DNA of 64,000 nt from Camelus dromedarius (GCF_036321535.1 NC_087436.1:78990001-79054000); one strand, 5' to 3'; positions 930 to 57,148 are shown, numbered from the stretch's first letter. The notes: generated by a model not told the origin, from the sequence alone. Translations and numbers: made by a program.

Positions 930-2413
930 CTGCAGTAAGAAACAATTAATAACTAAATAGTACTTACAAATAATTAAGAAAACTCAGTTCAGAGCTGGAA
1001 AGATCTGTCCATTTTAAGGCCTATAATTTTTCTATTTAATTAAAAAGGCAAAATGTATGAATTCCTAAAAACTATGCATAAAAATCCAAAATTAAAAGTG
1101 TTTTTAAAGAAACGTATAATAAAATTCTACTAAACTAAAAAGATAATATGTCTACTGATATTTTAATACATTAAAAAATAATTACATGGGTAAATTCTTA
1201 ATGCAACCAGACAGGAATTATTACTTGTGGTTTTCATCTCTGGAAGGGGGTCTGATTGTGGGAGACTAAACTGGTCACCAATTATCGCTTTTAGACAAAC
1301 TGCCAAATCCTAAAATAATGGCATCTATCTCAGGATACCTCAAAGACAGCCTCAGGAGCTGGACCAAGACAGAGCTAGTCATATCTCTCGTCTTAAATGC
1401 TCATATATTTCTATTTCATTTATGCTCAATCTTGTTCCGGGTGGCAGTATTTCTAGGTTATCTCTGTCATATACCTGTGGGGTCAAAAAGACCCTAAAAC
1501 TGATATGAAGTATAGGAAGATAATGAGGTTCATACATTGATCTTCATCCTTTAAAGCTCACTCTCATAAAAAACTGACATATAATTATGAAAATAGAGGA
1601 ATTCTATGGTAGCAGTCACCTATAATAGAAGATACTAACCAAAAATCTGCAGCTGTTTAATCCAATTAACAGAGAAATTAGGTATCTAATCTAAAGAGTA
1701 GACACCATAAACTGCAGAAATGAAAAAGTTTGGGTTTCTGTATTTGTAGACCCGAAGTATCTATTTATAATGTAAGAAAAATAACTATTTTAAACTTAGA
1801 TAATATTCATTTTTGGTTATACTCTAGTATCCTATTAACTCAAGATATTTATTAGCCTATCTATAATTTTTATAACTAATATTCAGCAATATTTATGATG
1901 ACAATAGTAGAAAGCCTCTTAACTGCCTATTTATTAAATCTGTACTATATTTGTGTATATTTATAATTACTTGATAAGGCTAATAACCTCTTTGTCAAAA
2001 ATACAGCATTTATCAACTAACAAAACAGTAGATTAAGCCACATACCATTGTACCCGACTAATGCTGTACTAACACAAACTTTTAAAAGGCAAGGTTTCCA
2101 ACCTTTGAGGTTCCTAATGTTTAAAAAATGTCCAATAACAAAAAAAGAAACAAAAAATAAAAAATGTCCAATAAGATGACATCTCCAGACTTCTAGAATT
2201 AAACCCATCAGCCTGATCCATTCCATGGAGTTAGTATCAATTCACTGTGAACCCAAATCTGAACCCTCCATTCTTCAAATACACTTATTTATCAACCTGC
2301 ACAGGCACAGTTTCAGCTTTCAATTCCAAGACTGAGGCAGAGTGGATTCATAGACTTATTTCAAATAAGTAACACATATCTCAAGAATTATGAATAAATG
2401 TCAGAAGTCTAAC

Positions 2414-2612
2414 CTGGAAAATGTTCACATCCAAGGCTCTCACTGGGCCAGTATGTTTGTCATTCTGGGCAATCACAACTTCCTTTTCGCCAGCTATAAT
2501 TTTTGAAGGATCATAAAGAATAATATTTCCATTTTCACCACCTGCAATAAGGACTCCAGAGACATTTCCCTTCGAATCCATCTTATGAGGCCCCCAAATC
2601 AACTTGTGGTAC
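2414..2612 (-). CDS. SEC31A: SEC31A coding exon 3: (R)YHKLIWGPHKMDSKGNVSGVLIAGGENGNIILYDPSKIIAGEKEVVIAQNDKHTGPVRALDVNIFQ
   Basis: 199 nt; ttaaag|GT...CAG|gttaga; overlaps ORF 2381..2602; cumulative CDS 402 nt stays in frame. Confidence 0.96.
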
Positions 2613-4034
2613 CTTTAAGAGAAAATGAATAAAATAACTCCTTTTTGAAGTCAAATAAATATAGAAAAGAATTTGAAATTATACACTTAATTATTTTCAT
2701 AAATACACTAAAAACATTGCCTCTCCTCTATTCCTGGTAATTGTGCATAACTTGGTGAAATGGCCTTTTAGTTTTTATTTATACTTACATGTACATGTTT
2801 TATTTTGTAATCTTGAAGAGTATAAACTTGTAGAGCTAATATAATATGACAAAGCATATTTGCTTGTGTCAAAAAATATGAGCTTAATAAAAAATGAAAC
2901 ACTCCCCCTGCCAAAATTTAAAAAGAAAGAAAATGAAACAGACAAACAAAAACATGAGCTTAAGAATGGTTTTACCATTTAGAACCTTTGAGACCCCAGG
3001 TCAGTTACTTAATCTTCCTAAGCTGCTTTTGATTCATTTATAAAATAGAGCTAATCAACCACTTCCCTTGATTTTATCTGACAAAAGTACTAACAAGTTG
3101 TCTCTTAAATAGTAAAGGTGTTAAGGGAGTCATCTGACATTTTCTAAGAAAAATAACGTATTCTGACAGTAGAAAAGTGACAGAAAAGTGAAAAATTATG
3201 TCATTAAGACAAGTACCCCATTGGCGGAGGATAAAAGATTATGGTTTGGCACGGAGGTGGCATGGAGATACACAATGAGACAAACGGTGGTGAGCAGAAA
3301 AACTGTTCGACAAAAGGTATTTGGGGTTCCCATCACAGTGGGTGGAGGACTTGGAAGAATATGAGAGGTCCCATGAGACTCGATGATTTGAGCTGTATTC
3401 TCTTAGCTAAGGTACAATCTCTTCCCCCAGATCTGCCATGCCATTGAGGCAAAAAGCATATTTTACTACTCAAATGAAAGTGTCCTTGCCTGTGTTCCAA
3501 TATGGCTTAAGTGCTTGGATAGGTGATCTAAATACCTGCTGTATCAGAAATCATGTCAACAAAATTCTTTGTGAAGTATTATTTTTAGATACAGATTCAA
3601 GGAAAATGTATTTTTAAATACAGATACAGGGGAAAAAATAAAAACAACCTCCGTTCAGAAATAATCACTGCTAACATCTTAATATTCATCCAACTACTCC
3701 TTTTTCTAGTCATACCTACCTTTTTTTGTAAACAGATGAGATACAGGAGATAGAAAAAAATAATTCTACTATATCATGAGAAAAAAAAATACTAGAAACT
3801 AGAGCCTCTCCTTCTTAACCTACACAAAACAGTCAGTAGTAAAAAATTCAACAGAACATATAGACACTTCTTTTACTTCCATAGAAATTCTCTCATATAT
3901 TTTTTTCACAAAATATGTCATGTCATTGATGGTATTCCTTGCAGTTTCTATTAATGGAACATTTACAGACATGCCAGGCATCAACCACAAAATATAATTA
4001 AATAATCATGTGAATTTAAGGTTGAATCTCATAC

Positions 4035-6794: not shown

Positions 6795-6930
6795 CCCGGG
6801 GGTAGAGGGGGAATAGGTTTTTTGTTTCTTTAATTTACTTTTTTTTTTTTACTGCAGGTACTAGGGATTGAACCCAGGACTTTATGAATGCTAAGCACAC
6901 ACTCTACCACTGACCTATACTCTCTCTCAA
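6795..6930 (-). mobile_element. tRNA-derived SINE (camelid Vic-like)
   Basis: gtactagggattgaacccaggact...gctaagcacacactctaccactgacctatac is the reverse complement of the same SINE head seen at 57025. Confidence 0.78.
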
Positions 6931-12962: not shown

Positions 12963-14599
12963 ATACAGAAGTCATAATTTAAAATGTTTACCCCAGTGAA
13001 TCTTCAACAGAATACCTTTCTTGAAGAAAATTTATGTTCTAGACTACAACTTTGATTTATTCATCCAAGGGTCTGCAACTGTATGCAGTTAGATGGGAAC
13101 TCTTTTCTTTTTGCATTTTCTAAATGCTAATTTTGTGAAGCAACACCAAAACCTAATAGTACTATTCTTTAAAAAAAAACCACCAACTTTACCATGCTAT
13201 ATACATAGAGCTAACCTAAACCTCAGAAAGTAAAAAGTGAAAGGGGTCACAGAATTGGAAACTGACTCTCAAATCAGGAACACAATCCCTAATTGCCACT
13301 GCCTTTAGTAAAAATCCATCCTGTGTGGGCAAAATAATCTCATTAGGGACTGGCACATTTGTTCCAGAGGATTTATTTAATGTTATCTATGTTCTAGGCT
13401 CATCTCATTCAACCAAAATCAAATCAAAGAAGGAACTGTGCATTGGTCATTGAACTAAATGGTGTCATACTTATCTGCATTTAACAAACAAAACTTTTTG
13501 AGCTGAAATTAACCTATTTAAGAATGACAACATTTCTAAAAACAATGTAAAAATCAATTTAATAATATCACCTTATAAAAGCCTTTGAGATTTGTAAATC
13601 TTGTGAAACTATACAGAAACTCCTATATGTGTGTATGTGCATTTTTCTAGGAAGATGATCCAATGCTTTACCAGATCCTCCAAAGGAAATGGAACCCCCA
13701 AAAGTTAAGAATCATTGCTCCTTACAGTTTACAAATTTCTTTCTGTTCTTATGTTGTCAGCTTCAGAAAAGAGCCTGCTTATATAAAATTAAGCAGTATT
13801 AAACCTAAATCCATTCCAAATCTCACGTTTCCTAAATAACCTTACATGTGTGTAACATAAATTCACAACTACAAAAACACTTCAAGTATTCCAAAACTTC
13901 TTGGAGTCTACAAACCTTTCCCAGAGCTGCAATTAACGGATAATAAGAAACAAGCAACACAGGAGAATCACTAAGAAAAGGTAAGCAAACTTCAGCCAAC
14001 TCTAGAACAATCAGTACGTACAACAAACGTTAAGACAGTATAAGGACGAGGCTCTAACTGTTGACTAAATACAGTTGCCTACAAAGACAACCCGATTTCA
14101 GTTTCGTGTGGTTAGAAAAGACAGTTTAGGAAGAAGGATTTCTCTCAGAGACCATCACTGCAACTTCAGAAAGATATAGGTAAAATTAGTTCCTTGAGCT
14201 TCTGGAAGAGGTTATAACGCTCATAAGTCCAGGCAATATTTTTATTCATTTTACACCTGCCCCATAATCTAACCTCTTATTATAGTAAATTACTAGCAAA
14301 AACACAACACTTAATGAGACTTCCTTCGAGGTGTATAGGCTGCAACTGGCGAGTACTGCCCTTAAAATAATCCAATTCTGGCTAAATGGCAGTAGCCTTC
14401 AGATAAAACCTACGAATCTTTAAATCCGGCAACGGTTTAATTATTAACAAAAAGTCCTAACCAAACTGAAGTCAACCAAAGAAATCCTGAGGTTTGTTTC
14501 CTTCCCTCGCCCTTGGGGACCGCACCTTTTTGTGCACAAGGGTCTGAAGGTCTCCTAACCTCAGACCCCACTTATGGACCCTGGCAGGACACCCTGTCG

Positions 14600-15300
14600 C
14601 AAGCCTTAGGGGCGCTCCTGCTCAGCAGTGGAAACGTCGGCGGATGCGGACAGGCGCGATCTCCGAAGAAACCGTGACGCCAGGCGTCCCGCTGGGCCCG
14701 AAACGCAGACCGACCGGGCCGCAGTCTGGCGGGGACCACCGGAGATCGAGGCCGGGATCCTAGCTTTGGCCCGGGCTCTCCCTGAAGGCCAGAGGCCCGG
14801 CAAAGAGGACAGGAGGGGATGAAGCGGACACACCTGGCGGGGACCCTCGGCGACCGGTTCCAACGTTAGCTCGGCACCCGTCGGAGTCTGCCAGCATTCG
14901 CCGCCGCCCCTCCTCCCGGCCAGGGCCACCTCCACGCTCCGCTCCAACGTGGCAGCCGCAGCCCCGCCCAGCCGGCTGGCCGACGCTTCCGGGAGCACGG
15001 CCTGGCCCCACCCACCCGGCGCGCGACCCGCCACGGCACTTCCGGGAGCGGTGGCTAGCGGGAGGGTCCCCGGTGCCGCGAGGCGCATGTCCTTGGGAGG
15101 CTACGGACCGGTCCTGAGGGGCGGCGTGCGGTGGCCAGGACGACGCGAAGAAGAAAAGTCCTGCTGGGTGTAGCTGTGTGGCGGAAGAACGGCCGCAGCC
15201 CGCGGAAACGCCACGTAGCACTGGTCCTGTGAGACGTCAGCAGCGCCGCGACACTGCCGACGCGACCAACCACCGAAAACCGGGCTGCGAGGGCCTTATT
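14600..15300 (-). promoter_or_regulatory. SEC31A: CpG-island promoter of SEC31A
   Basis: Very high GC/CpG density. GC boxes, ETS motifs (CTTCCGG at ~14986 and ~15038), CCACGT at 15211 and TGACGTC on the minus strand at ~15233-15239. Confidence 0.85.
14834..14990 (-). other. SEC31A: Probable SEC31A first (5'UTR) exon; 5' end approximate
   Basis: Donor CCAG|gtgtgt at 14834/14833 inside the CpG island; the first coding exon downstream begins with an acceptor, so an upstream exon is required. Confidence 0.65.
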
Positions 15301-16294
15301 GCAGGAACTGTAATTGTGACTAGGGTCTTAAAATTGCTTACTTGCTTATTGAGAACTTCTTTAAAACCAGACGATCTGGTCATACCCAAAGGCTGTTGTG
15401 GACATACTTGATTTGTTACTCCGAAGAGGCCTAGTGGGGTAAACAAGGTATTGCGGTTAGTATCCTGCCTTACTGTTTGAGATCTGTTAGCATTTGCCTT
15501 CAGTCACTGTAACTTTGGTAGTTTCGCCAGAGCCAGGCATCTAATTAGTGCGTGACATGGATGTTGTTTCTTGTTTTAGGGAGGAATTATTTCATAGCAA
15601 ATAAGGCAAAGCCAGAGGAAAATCACAGTATCAGAACCTGGACTCCTAACTTCTAGACCAGTTCTCTTCCCATTACACCAGTCACCAGTCTTTTCTAAAT
15701 GCCTTCACGGGAAGTAACGTTTCTCTGTTTTGCACGCAAAAAGTAAAATATGGCAAGCACCGCTATTTAACAGTAGGCAGATTTTTGTACTCTCACTGTA
15801 CTTCCAACACCCTTCTAGTGTCTTCTACTTCTGGTTCAATTTAAAAAGCAGATTTATTTCTGTAGGGCTGAAGTAGACTTGCTGAAGCAGCTTAGGAGAC
15901 AGTAGCAGCTTAGGAGACAGTAGCTAATCTTTAGTGTTCTGAAAAGCCTTCTATTTTTACTTATTGCTGCAAGGCCTAGTTTACCTAAAGGGGTGCTAAT
16001 AAAAATCCCCAACTTAAAAGTAGGATCATCATTTGAATCAAGTGAACACCTTGAACTCCTTACTGTCTCATTCCCCAAAGACCCTATCCTGCTTTGAAGT
16101 GTGCATTGGATGGTATGGGGCAAAAATGGTTCATTAGAAAACTCCAAAACTCAATGATGCAAGTAGTGGTTACATTCTTTGGTATCATTTAATATAGTCA
16201 TTCAACTACAGGTTCCTCCTGCATAAATCAAATTACAGACCTCTCCTTTCCCCTACTCCCTTTTGTAGGCCCAGTGAGCCAAGAACAGCAAAAG

Positions 16295-19236: not shown

Positions 19237-19312
19237 CTTATTACAAATCTCTAAATTCTTGATGAATCTGACAAATGATGTTCTCTAAGAAAAACACCCT
19301 TCAATTCTATTC
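19237..19312 (-). ncRNA. Candidate exon of the antisense snoRNA-host lncRNA (THAP9-AS1-like)
   Basis: ttttctcttttag| acceptor and TAAG|gtaaga donor; the acceptor lies ~80 nt downstream of snoRNA copy A. Confidence 0.55.
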
Positions 19313-19392
19313 CTAAAAGAGAAAACATTTAAAGGCAAGTCAGTGTACAGAAACTACATATCTATATGCCTCATGATTTTCTTTTTTCCATT

Positions 19393-19468
19393 ATGTCCTC
19401 ATCCACATACATTAATCACAACAAATCATGATGTGAACAGCAGTGGAAAAAGTTTAATCATTGGACAT
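19393..19468 (-). ncRNA. Box C/D snoRNA copy A (SNORD143/144-like) with a 28S rRNA guide
   Basis: 6-bp terminal stem ATGTCC/GGACAT; box C ATGATTA (19461-19455); guide ACTGCTGTTCACAT (19444-19431); D' ATGA (19429-19426); C' GTGATTA (19419-19413); D ATGA (19402-19399); paralogous to 21907-21985. Confidence 0.85.
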
Positions 19469-19934
19469 TTATACTTTTTTCTCATTTTCAACTTAAGTTC
19501 TAGTCAAGGTTTTTATTGCTTAGCCCCCTTTAAAATATAGATAAATGCACATTTCTATAGATTTCAATTTTCTCATGTAGAACAGATAAGACCTCCAATT
19601 TTACTATCATTGGAAAAAACTCGTAAGATAATTTCAAGCATATCATTTATCTACTTTGCACAGATTACCTTATGCTAACTTGGAGGTATTGTCTTCTTAA
19701 CATCAAACCTGATATGGAAATGATAACCATACATTTGAAAACTGGTTATGCCTTGCTTCATATGTAATGTTTCTGTTATTTGACATTTCCAGTGATCAGA
19801 AGCACTAAAACTTTCAAGGAAAAGAGGGAGAGTCATCTCTACTAAGAACTTATAAGCAGTGATAATGTGAAAAGACTCAAAAGATTACAAATTTCAGGCA
19901 TTAAACAGAATGCTGACAATTAGGAACATCCTGA

Positions 19935-20062
19935 CTGCTTGACAATGTTTTTATTTCACTCATTAAGAGGGAAAGAAGAGCTCCTGGCAAGGCCCAGCAC
20001 CCCTTGCAGGCCTTCCCCAGCTGGTTGGGGTGGCCTTAGGCTTGGCTGGCTGCCCCCAATGC
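19935..20062 (-). ncRNA. Candidate alternative terminal exon of the antisense lncRNA
   Basis: Strong acceptor ttttattttcag| at 20063/20062, GC-rich body, AATAAA on the minus strand at 19955-19950. Confidence 0.4.
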
Positions 20063-20679
20063 CTGAAAATAAAATTAAAATACAATAAAATAAGGAACAG
20101 AAGCCCAGAGCAGGGGAAAGCAGCAGGAAGGAAAGCAAGCATACTTGCCACACTGGATAAAAATCAAGCTTTTGGCAAAAAGGGCAACTGCTTGAATTTT
20201 GCTGCTGCATATTTGCACCTTTACTCTATCCTATGTCAAATACTCGTATAACTGCCTGTAAGTAATTGGACTACATTCCTTCAAAAACAGAAATTTCAAC
20301 TTTTCCAAGTCAATCTGCACCTCAGGTAAAGTAATAGGGGAAGGGATACAAAATTTCTAGTCTAGTTCCAACCAGCTTCTCTTAACCCCCTCCACCTAGG
20401 GGGAATTGGGAAAGGGGAAATGAGTCCAATAAAAATATATTTCATTAAGGTAGAGTATTCTGACTATAAAGTGAACTTTCTTAAAACTCTCAAAAGGAAT
20501 GTAGCACCACTTGTAGTTTATATATACACAGGCAAGAAAGAAACCACATGTACCTTAGAAAACAGAGCACTTGTTTGGATACAATGCTCTCATACTTCTA
20601 ATTATCTGACTTAAGGATCAAATATCAACTCTCTTGACTTAATACATTGAAACATTTTTTTAAAAGTTTTTAATTAAAG

Positions 20680-21108
20680 TGTGGTTGTCAACCTCCAGGA
20701 TGGTCCCCAATGATCCTCCACCTCCTGGTATTCATACCTTTGTATAGTGTCCACCTATACTGCACCAGGATTAGTCTCTGTGACCAGTAAAGCAAGGCAG
20801 AAGTGATGTTTTGTCACTTTCTAGAGTAACTTTTAAAAGACAAGCTTCCATCTTGGCCTTTCTCTCTGTGATCATTCCCTCCGGGAAAGCCAACTGTCAT
20901 ATTATAAGGATACTCAGGCAGCCCATGGGGAGGTTCACATGGTGAGGAAGAACTGACGTCTTCAGCCAACAGCCATCAAAGAACTGAGGCTTGCCAAGTG
21001 AGACAGTTTGGAAGCTGATGTCTCTCCTCTACCTCCTCTGCCCACTGTAAGATAAAGGTTTTTTGTTCTAAACTGTCAAATTTTTGTTACATTGCAATAA
21101 ATAACCCA
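20680..21108. mobile_element. MaLR LTR (MLT1-like)
   Basis: Starts tgtggttgtc...ggtccccaatgatcc; ends tgttacattgcaataaataac, typical of MLT1 LTRs. Confidence 0.6.
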
Positions 21109-21753
21109 GGTCACAAACCATATCCCAGAAGTAAAATGTACAACTTATGAATCAGTTGAAAAGTTGTGAAATCTTGGGAAAGGATCAGATTCAGAACTGT
21201 CTTCACATTTATTCACCAATAATTTCAAAACCTCAAGGCTTTCTGAAGCAAAAACAACAACAAAACAAAACAAACAAACAAAAAACCCCAGAGAACTAAT
21301 AGGATGAAAAATTTAGCAAGAATGTAAGTCAGTTACTAGAAACACATTTTACTTATCAAGAAGACAAATAAATGCCCTAGTATAACTGACTAAAAAATCT
21401 GTCAAAAGGATAGGTGTTCAATAAGGACAATACCAGTCCTAGAAAGCAAAAGTCTATTTACTTTCATAGGGATGTTGAGAGAAATAGAAAGTGTTTAAAA
21501 CAAAAACAAAAAAACTGTGTATGTGTATAAAACACTTAGTACAAAGCCTGACATATAACCACTTAATAAGTTTTAGCTGTTACTATTTTTTTTTTTCAGG
21601 TGACCAATGAATGAGATTCTATACCACCAAACAGGAGAGTAGATTTCACCCAAGCCTTTATAAAATCCATTTTTACTCGACAATCCTCCACTTTCAACTC
21701 GGTACTTTTGTTCCAGGAATACTTAATACATTTAAAACAAAAGAATATACTAC

Positions 21754-21827
21754 CTCCTCTGCATACTTTGAGTAAGTGACTTCCAAGACCCAGGAATCTT
21801 CTTCTGACATTTCCAAGAATATAATCC
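21754..21827 (-). ncRNA. Candidate exon of the antisense snoRNA-host lncRNA (THAP9-AS1-like)
   Basis: tctcttttcag| acceptor and GAG|gtagta donor; the acceptor lies ~80 nt downstream of snoRNA copy B. Confidence 0.5.
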
Positions 21828-21906
21828 CTGAAAAGAGATATTTTATTTTAAATTATTTTGTCTAATGGTCAATGCCTTTTACAAACAACATCTTTAATGT
21901 AGCTTA

Positions 21907-21985
21907 CATATCCTCATTTACATATTCAATAATCACAACGGTTCATTATGTGAACAGCAGTCAAAAAGTTTAATCACTGGATATG
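21907..21985 (-). ncRNA. Box C/D snoRNA copy B (SNORD143/144-like) with a 28S rRNA guide
   Basis: 7-bp terminal stem CATATCC/GGATATG; box C GTGATTA (21977-21971); guide ACTGCTGTTCACAT (21961-21948); D' ATGA (21946-21943); C' GTGATTA (21936-21930); D ATGA (21917-21914). Confidence 0.85.
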
Positions 21986-22974: not shown

Positions 22975-23645
22975 TACAAGAATGTGGAGAAATTGGAACC
23001 CTCATCCATCGCTAGTGGGAATGTAAAATGGTACAGCTACTTTGGAAAAAGTCTGGCATTTCCTTAAGAGGTTAAACATAAGAGTTAGCATATGACCCAA
23101 CAATTCCATCCTTAGGTGTATACTCAAGAGGAATGAAAACATATGTCTACACACAAACTTGTACACTAATGTTCACAGCAGCATTATTCCTAACAGCCAC
23201 TCAAAATGGAAGCAACTCAGATGTCCACCAACTGATGAATTGATAAAATAAAATGTGGTATACCCATACAATGGAATATTTTTTGGCAATAAAAAAAATG
23301 AAGTACTGATACTACGACATGAATGAACCTTAAAAATATTCCAAGTGCAAGAAGCCAGTCACAAAAGATGATACATTAGTTTCTGATTCCATTTATATGA
23401 AGTATCCAGAATAGGCAAATCTAAACAAAGATCAGTGGTTTCCAGAGGCTGGAGGAGGGAAAATATAAGTGACTACTAATGAAAATGGGACTTCTTTCTG
23501 GGGTCATGAAAATGTTCAAAAATTGATTGTGGTGATGGTTGCACAACTCATGAATATACTAAAAACCATCGAATTGTGCACTTTAAACGTATTAACTGTA
23601 TGGTATTTATTTGAGTTATAGCTCAATAAAACTGTTACCAAAAAA
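22975..23645 (+). mobile_element. L1 (L1MB-like) 3' end
   Basis: ORF2-end/3'UTR text (gtggagaaattggaaccctc...gacccaacaattcc...atggaatatt...tggtgatggttgcacaac...ctcaataaaactgtt) followed by an A-rich end. Confidence 0.75.
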
Positions 23646-24699
23646 GTAAAGCAACCAATTTTTAATTAAAAACGTATTTATTTCTATTTAGCCTCACTCA
23701 GGTCTTAATTGGTTGAGTGCTGGAACTTTCTAACAGTGTAATCAACTGATAGTGACTTAAATCCAGGTCCTACGTCTTGCACATCTTACAGCCAAGTAAG
23801 CACATCCCCCATGGACCAATCTTCACCAAATTCATGAACTATCTTTAGGCCATGTAACTGTTAACAAAGCTACATAAGCAAAAGCTATGTTAATTTCATT
23901 CACATAGGACACAAGCATATTATAATGGAAAGCAACTGTAAATAAATAATACCTTGAGATGAATCTTTGCGGCTGGAATCTGGATAAACTAAACAAAAAG
24001 GGGGGAAAGAACGATCTTGTTTGGAAATATTGGAATCATTCTTGCCAACTAGAGAAAAATTAATGTTACAAACATTTGTTTTCTATAACGGGCCTCTAAC
24101 GTCAACCAGGAAAGATGCCACTTCATATGCTATAGATCTCTACAAAGATACAAAACAGAAACTATGATCTACTTTGGCCCCATTTTGTTTCTTCTATGAA
24201 AACTGAAATCGCATACTGTAAAAATAAAGATTAACAAAGACATCGTTCTAAGATCTTCTCACTCCTGAAAGCTAACCACCATGCCCTACATCCCAACCAA
24301 ACCCGTTTAGTTGCCCCTCTCTCCCGCACCTCCTAGTACTGCTGTTGACAGTCCCCACGAGATCGTTCGCTTCCCCAGAGCCCCGAGGACCTTCTTACCT
24401 TATTTCCTTAATTCCTCCACTGCAGCAAATGATCCTGCAGAAAAGCGTTCGTTCAACTAAAAGTCGACGTATCTTCACATCAGATTCTTATTCAAGCTCC
24501 TATGAGGTCACATACCTATGGTCAACCATTCCACTAGCTTCTACATTCATTATCTCTGCATCAGGGAACTACAAAATAAAATGCAAAGAAATGACATGCC
24601 CCTCAGTAAACCATTTATTTTAGATCCAACTTAGCCCTCCATATTTCTAGGGAGCCTCATTGATCCTTCTCCCTCCTACACCTCCCATTACATCCTCCA

Positions 24700-25720
24700 G
24701 TCACTTTCTGAGCTCGCACCCGGAGACCCACCGGCATGCCTCTGGATTCGCCTCAACTTTGGTCCGGCCTCTCCCTTCGCATTCTCTGGCTGGGCCTCAC
24801 AAGAAGCGCGATGGCACTGGATTTAACCACAGCGGAAAAAAACAAGTCTTTGACAGCTAAATCCACTAACCACCCTCGAACAGAGACGAACGAGCGGCCA
24901 AGTGCTCGTCTTTATGCCCCTGGCCTTTCAGATTGGCTGCTGTGACACGACGCGGCCTGTGATTGGCCACGGCGTCAAGCGCAGAGCCCATGGAGAGGAA
25001 GGGTGGGAGCCGAGCGCTTTAAGAGCCCGCCTTTCCCAACAAGTAAAGGTTGCAGCCGCCGAGTCATCGGGCGGAGCTAACTTTATCGTGATTCATGCTG
25101 TCGCGGGAATACCGACGGTGGAGCTCCACGTAGCAAGAAGATGACCCGAAGTTGCTCGGCTGTGGGCTGCAGCACCCGGGACACCGTGCTGAGCCGGGAG
25201 CGAGGCCTCTCCTTCCACCAGTGCGTGAGAGCAGCCTCCGCGATAACTCCCAGCACGGCCAGGAAGGCTGTAGGCCAGGGTGGGGCGGGGCCGGGCCGTG
25301 CGTCTCCCAGACGTGACGTGACGTGACGTGGCGTGGCGTGCGTAGCGCGGGGGTAGGGAGGGGAACCGGGTCACTTGGAGAGTGGGGTTCTTGCTTCAGG
25401 TCTTGCTCTTTTTACCTCCGCGTGTCTGTCTTTTTGTCATTGCCTACCGGTGCTCGGTAGCTTTTAGCGTTACTTAACGCGGTAGGCGTCGGTCGTCTTA
25501 GGAGAAGGAAAGGCAGTTTAGAATACCTGTTGAAGGCGTGAGCTTTTATTGGAGTGCGTGGCTTGCTCCAGAACATGAGTACAGATGAATTTGATACGGA
25601 ACTGAACTCTGCTCTCCATCCCGGCAAAGCTAGTTTACTCCAAATTGTGGTGAAGGAAACTCTAACGTTGACTGCAAGGCGCGAAGCGAGGGGAAGGGCG
25701 GGGGCGGCTGTGTTCAAAAG
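24700..25720. promoter_or_regulatory. Bidirectional CpG-island promoter (THAP9 and the antisense lncRNA)
   Basis: CpG-rich; two ATTGG (CCAAT) boxes at 24932 and 24962; GC boxes; TGACG repeats at 25310-25340; minus-strand splice donor AAG|gtaaga at 24399/24398. Confidence 0.8.
25141..25220 (+). CDS. THAP9: THAP9 exon 1: MTRSCSAVGCSTRDTVLSRERGLSFH(Q), THAP zinc finger N-half (C5, C10)
   Basis: ATG 25141; CxxxxC THAP start; donor CA|gtgcgt; 80 nt, phase 2, matches the exon 2 phase. Confidence 0.93.
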
Positions 25721-57024: not shown

Positions 57025-57148
57025 GGGGAGGGTAGAGCTTAGTGGTAGAGTGCATACTTAGCATGCACAAGATCCTGGGTTCAATCCCCAGTGCCTCCAT
57101 CAAAAATAAATAAACCTAATTTACCACCCCCACCAAAAAAAAAAAAAG
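57025..57148 (+). mobile_element. Intact tRNA-derived SINE (camelid Vic-like) with poly(A) and a 13-bp TSD AAGCATTTTCAGT
   Basis: GGGGAGGGTAGAGCTTAGTGGTAGAG...CTGGGTTCAATCCCCAGTGCCTCC, A-tail; TSD at 57012-57024 and 57149-57161. Confidence 0.9.

Follow-up and report, generated by a model that had tools for sequence, protein, structure and literature searches.

The window analysed here is a stretch of 64,000 nucleotides from Camelus dromedarius (GCF_036321535.1 NC_087436.1:78990001-79054000), given as one strand, and all positions are counted from its first letter. It carries two short elements, copy A and copy B, each of which lies in an intron. The original prediction for this DNA was of two minus-strand paralogues of 76-79 nt, about 2.5 kb apart; elements of 77 and 76 nt were found, with their 5' ends separated by 2,516 nt. 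The elements, the exons around them and a coding exon of SEC31A are as follows.

24568..24399, minus strand: upstream host exon, bounded by AG and GTAAGA, overlapping the Rfam adapt33_3 match at 24403-24568
21984..21908, minus strand: copy A, orthologue of SNORD144 (ZL6), 77 nt from stem to stem
21827..21754, minus strand: host exon of 74 nt, bounded by AG and GT, with the coordinates of the Rfam adapt33_2 match
19468..19393, minus strand: copy B, orthologue of SNORD143 (ZL5), 76 nt
19312..19237, minus strand: host exon of 76 nt, bounded by AG and GTAAGA, with the coordinates of the Rfam adapt33_1 match
2384..2614, minus strand: SEC31A coding exon, matching PDB 7sul_A ('Protein transport protein Sec31A') over residues 86-157 (E 7e-40)

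The last exon, by its position and orientation, shows that both snoRNAs share the strand of the SEC31A coding exons and lie upstream of them. Copy A precedes the second and copy B the third of the host exons, and in both cases the 3' end of the element stands exactly 80 nt before the AG acceptor (intron tails 21828-21907 and 19313-19392). When the flanks of the two paralogues were aligned, identity was near random: 5/46 upstream, 25/80 in the intron tail and 29/76 in the next exon. That both spacings are exactly 80 nt, though the tails agree at 25 of 80 positions, suggests a constraint on distance and not on sequence. The optimum distance from a snoRNA to the 3' splice site is about 70-80 nt. 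PMC4150776 mentions the proximity of snoRNAs to the downstream exon.

The exons resemble the lncRNA adapt33 (mouse 5430416N02Rik, human THAP9-AS1) in that the three snoRNA-flanking exons coincide with adapt33 regions; adapt33_3, adapt33_2 and adapt33_1 are colinear with them and base-exact at five of the six ends. They differ from it in that the Rfam matches are all below gathering (41.4, 28.6 and 25.7 bits for adapt33_1, adapt33_2 and adapt33_3, against 60, 60 and 70) and lie on the plus strand, which has no splice signals there, opposite to the AG/GT signals on the minus strand. Either the Rfam adapt33 models are reverse complements of the spliced transcript, or the original cDNA entered the record in antisense orientation. 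In published accounts, mouse Adapt33 is 5430416N02Rik, a neighbour of Sec31a that is up-regulated upon loss of the NMD factor SMG7, and Thap9-AS1 is named as the syntenic homologue in human. In the accessible part of the literature on this lncRNA, no statement was found that it hosts snoRNAs. The simplest reading would place the snoRNAs within an adapt33/THAP9-AS1-like unit whose start lies upstream of SEC31A and which overlaps the long SEC31A isoforms. We take LOC100499177 to be THAP9-AS1. LOC100499177 is the name of the human host in Kishore 2013, and SEC31A is named as host in later work, whereas here the flanking exons match adapt33.

The host exons are flanked by two G+C-rich stretches, 14500-15500 (0.59-0.69) and 25000-25500 (0.62), which are likely to act as promoters for SEC31A and for the unit upstream of it. 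Searches of Pfam and NCBIfam with single exon translations returned no families in two sets of queries (4/4 and 3/3). An ORF at about 25135 on the plus strand begins MTRSCSAVGCSTR, a start that we presumed to be THAP-finger-like; this reading was unsupported by Pfam and PDB searches. Two matches to the tRNA model, 57028-57099 (plus strand, 33.6 bits) and 6853-6924 (minus strand, 30.1 bits), narrowly exceed the Rfam threshold of 29 and contain several non-standard pairs; they are probably the heads of tRNA-derived SINEs rather than tRNA genes. A match to the mir-562 model at 23008-23104 on the minus strand (22.2 bits against a gathering threshold of 100, E 0.94) is most likely due to chance.

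Anatomy of the two elements

Both copies carry a terminal stem, the boxes C, D', C' and D, and a 14-nt guide that is the same in each.

21984..21979 with 21913..21908, minus strand: terminal stem of copy A, ATATCC/GGATAT
21977..21971, minus strand: box C of copy A, GTGATTA
21961..21948, minus strand: guide of copy A, ACTGCTGTTCACAT
21946..21943, minus strand: box D' of copy A, ATGA
21936..21930, minus strand: box C' of copy A, GTGATTA
21917..21914, minus strand: box D of copy A, ATGA
19468..19463 with 19398..19393, minus strand: terminal stem of copy B, ATGTCC/GGACAT
19461..19455, minus strand: box C of copy B, ATGATTA
19444..19431, minus strand: guide of copy B, ACTGCTGTTCACAT
19429..19426, minus strand: box D' of copy B, ATGA
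19419..19413, minus strand: box C' of copy B, GTGATTA
19402..19399, minus strand: box D of copy B, ATGA

The order of parts is the same in both. A 6-nt stem half is followed by 1 nt, box C, 24-25 nt that end in ACTGCTGTTCACAT plus 1 nt, and D'; after D' come a 6-nt spacer, C', 10-12 nt, box D and the second stem half. All C and C' boxes had been predicted to read RTGATTA and all D and D' boxes ATGA, and both a script and direct reading of the sequence gave these letters in all four motifs.

The terminal stem is of 6 bp in both copies and is contained in both minimum-free-energy folds, for which z-scores of only -1.1 and -2.2 were obtained against shuffled sequences. Weak folding z-scores are usual for RNAs this short and open. 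Comparison of ATATCC/GGATAT with ATGTCC/GGACAT reveals one compensatory pair, both sides of which have changed between the paralogues.

On pairwise alignment the copies were identical in 64 of 78 columns, and the genome DNA search gave 82% identity. Identity extends beyond the boxes and the guide to the 9 nt that follow box C and the 3 nt that precede box C'. Hence the claim that stems, boxes and guide are kept stands, but the claim that nothing else is kept and that the spacers diverge understated the similarity.

The guide occurs twice in the window, both times on the minus strand. In 100 dinucleotide shuffles of the window the mean number of guide matches was 0.02, and two or more matches were found in none. 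When copy B was used as the query in a DNA search of the 2.3-Gb assembly, it retrieved itself (E 9e-42) and copy A (E 3e-11) only. Metagenome contigs were scanned for SNORD143/144-like copies of other animals by a T-run plus the guide; the scan returned 55 loci, none of which (0/55) had the boxes or the flanks, and these look like chance matches.

The U-A pair in stem II

According to PMC4150776, in the K-turn of a box C/D snoRNA the G-A pairs are followed by a U-U pair and this by two canonical pairs, and the consensus is RUGAUGA/CUGA. The first canonical pair of stem II forms between position 6 of box C and position 1 of box D. In each copy we found the terminal stem, a 3-nt bulge (AGU or AAU) and GAUUA facing AUGA, together with an internal C' (GTGATTA) and D' (ATGA) separated by 6 nt. 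The strict RUGAUGA and CUGA words each miss at one position, and the two deviating positions pair with each other, such that U-A replaces G-C as the stem-II pair in all four motifs (C/D and C'/D' of copies A and B). This replacement had been anticipated, and it fits the description of the K-turn in PMC4150776; the structural reading is sound, given U-A in place of G-C in every motif. The nucleotide 5' of the D and D' boxes (A, G, A, C) is unable to pair with A7 of C or C', which leaves stem II with a single canonical pair where two are typical.

Exactly these letters, GTGATTA or ATGATTA with ATGA, are annotated for human SNORD143 and SNORD144 in the GFF of Jorjani 2016. Box words were counted in that file as whole-word occurrences, all counts being lower bounds: GTGATTA occurred at least 4 times, ATGATTA at least 5, ATGA at least 53 and CTGA at least 710. 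Among the rows listed, ATGA partners seven of the nine R-TGATTA boxes, namely those of SNORD97 (C/D), SNORD112 (C'/D'), ZL121 (C/D) and both motifs of SNORD143 and SNORD144, and CTGA partners the other two (SNORD115-30 and SCARNA7). With SNORD143 and SNORD144 taken as one lineage, the ATGA-partnered fraction is 5/7, against an ATGA background no higher than 53/763 among the rows listed. The 53 ATGA rows listed comprise 10 terminal D boxes and 43 D' boxes. Box C position 6 is T for four of those 10 (SNORD97, SNORD143, SNORD144 and ZL121), the remaining six being SCARNA17 and five unnamed candidates, and C' position 6 is T for seven of those 43 (SNORD60, 72, 73B, 112, 113-1, 143 and 144).

Since seven of nine R-UGAUUA boxes, including that of SNORD97, are paired with AUGA, the change from G-C to U-A is a recurrent covariation. 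Human SNORD97, like SNORD143/144, combines the box C ATGATTA with the box D ATGA, and human SNORD112, SNORD60, SNORD73B and SNORD113-1 likewise combine a C' of the form xTGATTA with the D' ATGA. These five are unrelated snoRNAs with other guides, and each has the swap in one motif, whereas SNORD143/144 have it in both; among the catalogue rows listed, the swap in both motifs is peculiar to SNORD143/144.

As for the consequence of such a change, PMC6770171 reports at second hand that alteration of the stem-II U-U pair lowered core-protein binding to U14 in extracts, and that the same changes left guide activity in oocytes unaffected when C'/D' was intact. No data were found in the literature on the effect of changing the stem-II G-C pair. 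Nothing on the C6-D1 pair was found in the accessible text of the box C/D K-turn paper from the Lilley laboratory, and no description of a UGAUUA box C was apparent from the titles and abstracts of those papers listed as containing 'UGAUUA' and 'snoRNA'.

The guide and its 28S target

The 14-mer of the guide also occurs on two other contigs of the genome, in tandem units about 43.9 kb apart, one of which carries the Rfam matches LSU_rRNA_eukarya (2398 bits), 5.8S and 18S. The reference was the 28S of this genome itself, for which the Rfam match gives a length of 5,109 nt. The reverse complement of the guide is 28S 2422-2435, which lies inside ...GGTTCCATGTGAACAGCAGTTGAAC... and is a perfect 14-nt complement. 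The 28S stretch to which the guide had been proposed to pair is present in the animal's own 28S. A scan by the position rule returned a single 28S site for both copies, with U2425 opposite D'+5; this uridine corresponds to human Um2402, as had been predicted. In both copies the antisense element is at least 10 nt long and adjoins D', its fifth position faces the target nucleotide, and the duplex with 28S is of 14 bp for copy B and of 18 bp, including 2 G-U pairs, for copy A. When the D-linked antisense element of either copy was examined in the same way, no duplex of 9 bp or more was found in 28S, 5.8S or 18S.

The guide word was also encountered seven times on contig C9 (65.86-66.82 Mb), at a spacing of about 104-115 kb and in two inverted groups. 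The one such copy that was inspected is non-rDNA, with a tRNA-like match alone, and belongs to a large repeat.

Human counterparts, proposed function and alternatives

Human ZL5 and ZL6 were discovered by PAR-CLIP and small-RNA-seq (Kishore 2013); they have a common guide region, and their predicted target was a known 28S modification with a previously unknown guide. Supplementary file 9 of the same paper gives their sequences and small-RNA-seq profiles. Compared by eye with the sequences printed there, copy B differs from human ZL5 at 1 of 76 positions and copy A from human ZL6 at 4 of 86. Such near-identity marks copy B as the orthologue of SNORD143 and copy A as that of SNORD144, both catalogued snoRNAs that are already known, box letters included. 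The same identification had been made in the original prediction, and it is upheld by these small differences and by the assignments of Jorjani 2016 and Krogh 2016. In Table 2 of the latter, SNORD143/144 are assigned to LSU U2402, given as an experimentally validated position; for HeLa cells, LSU-2402 is listed without mass spectrometry validation and with an RMS score below 0.75 in RiboMeth-seq. In a 2025 paper in NAR Cancer, the levels of SNORD143/144 and of Um2402 fall and rise together in the ZEB1-driven EMT of mammary cells.

The genes of the two species are alike in length class, in the four boxes, in the 14-nt guide and in the target site. They are alike in locus also, upstream of the SEC31A coding exons and on one strand, with SNORD144 5' of SNORD143; human ZL6 lies upstream of ZL5 on the minus strand at about 2.3 kb (Kishore 2013), compared with 2.5 kb in Camelus dromedarius. 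Human SNORD144 differs from copy A, in which two guide-adjacent changes permit the 18 bp with 28S (2 G-U). By homology with the expression start and end columns of the human catalogue (Jorjani 2016), the mature RNAs would be of about 71-72 nt. No snoRNA family was matched at either locus in Rfam 15, whether at the gathering threshold or with E values allowed up to 10, and the supplement of Jorjani 2016 gives the Rfam ID of SNORD143/144 as 'NA'; the prediction that the pair would be invisible was correct as regards Rfam. Published statements on conservation conflict: Kishore 2013 finds no homologues of ZL5/ZL6 beyond mammals, and the table of Jorjani 2016 instead has 'Tetrapodes and Teleostes' for SNORD143 and 'NO' for SNORD144.

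The sequence anatomy, the pairing to the animal's own 28S, the intronic position and the close likeness to the human genes are established here for both elements. Very probably they are intron-encoded box C/D snoRNAs that guide methylation of 28S rRNA, copy A as the orthologue of human SNORD144 and copy B as that of SNORD143. By homology, each would be released from the spliced host intron. The terminal stem would unite boxes C and D in a K-turn, C' and D' would form an internal K-loop, and SNU13, NOP56, NOP58 and fibrillarin would be expected to assemble on the RNA, as for homologous snoRNAs. The D'-linked antisense element would then pair with 28S rRNA, and a 2'-O-methyl group would be added to the uridine that faces the fifth nucleotide upstream of D' (U2425, human Um2402). 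The U-A pair in stem II preserves pairing in all four motifs. At least half of the sampled words were contained in 20 of 24 sequencing runs, and RNA-seq contigs with this stretch cannot reveal a discrete small RNA.

The loci might instead be conserved relics without a working snoRNP in Camelus dromedarius, for example if stem II were too weak. A stem II with a single Watson-Crick pair would agree with this, as would the read counts of human SNORD143/144, which fall short of those of abundant snoRNAs such as SNORD31 by three to four orders of magnitude (11,450 and 228,680, against 211,623,697; Jorjani 2016). We consider this quite improbable: against the human sequences there are 1/76 and 4/86 differences, whereas the flanks of the two paralogues agree at a near-random level; the terminal stem has a compensatory change, the guide is intact against the 28S of this genome, both snoRNAs stand exactly 80 nt from the acceptor, and in human the two RNAs are expressed and follow the level of Um2402.

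It is harder still to believe that the main role is other than rRNA methylation, for instance in controlling how the host transcript is spliced or in yielding smaller fragments, so that the match to 28S would be of secondary importance. The D-linked guide without an rRNA target would be in line with such a role, and the NAR Cancer paper ties the snoRNA level to the handling of the host intron; against it, the perfect 14-nt guide is common to both paralogues and human, and the D'+5 rule places it on a uridine known to be methylated. That the elements are H/ACA snoRNAs, as in the original HGNC filing under SNORA96/SNORA97, is scarcely credible, because Jorjani 2016 revised that filing to box C/D, as SNORD143 (ZL5) and SNORD144 (ZL6), from small-RNA-seq read profiles, and the conserved block, at only 76-77 nt, contains a terminal stem together with the four boxes C, D', C' and D.

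With the elements taken as box C/D guides of 28S methylation, a further proposal may be put forward, although we regard it as unlikely: that the U-A stem II without a second pair is a selected weak K-turn which makes Um2402 sub-stoichiometric or tunable, and that the adapt33/THAP9-AS1 transcript is the snoRNA host. A weak K-turn would fit the HeLa score below 0.75 for LSU-2402, the low human read counts and the dynamics of the site in EMT; if real, it would limit snoRNP assembly. The adapt33/THAP9-AS1 lncRNA is described as stress- and NMD-responsive. If it is the host, phenotypes of its deletion or CRISPRa could act partly through SNORD143/144 and 28S methylation; given that the exons around the snoRNAs match adapt33, SNORD143/144 and Um2402 should be checked before an effect is credited to the lncRNA.

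As annotation, the result is routine: two catalogued snoRNAs that are unmodelled in Rfam 15 are placed in one further mammalian genome. The boxes of SNORD143/144 illustrate why strict CTGA/TGATGA scans overlook real guides, and their letters are a clean natural covariation that backs the stem-II pair of the box C/D K-turn.
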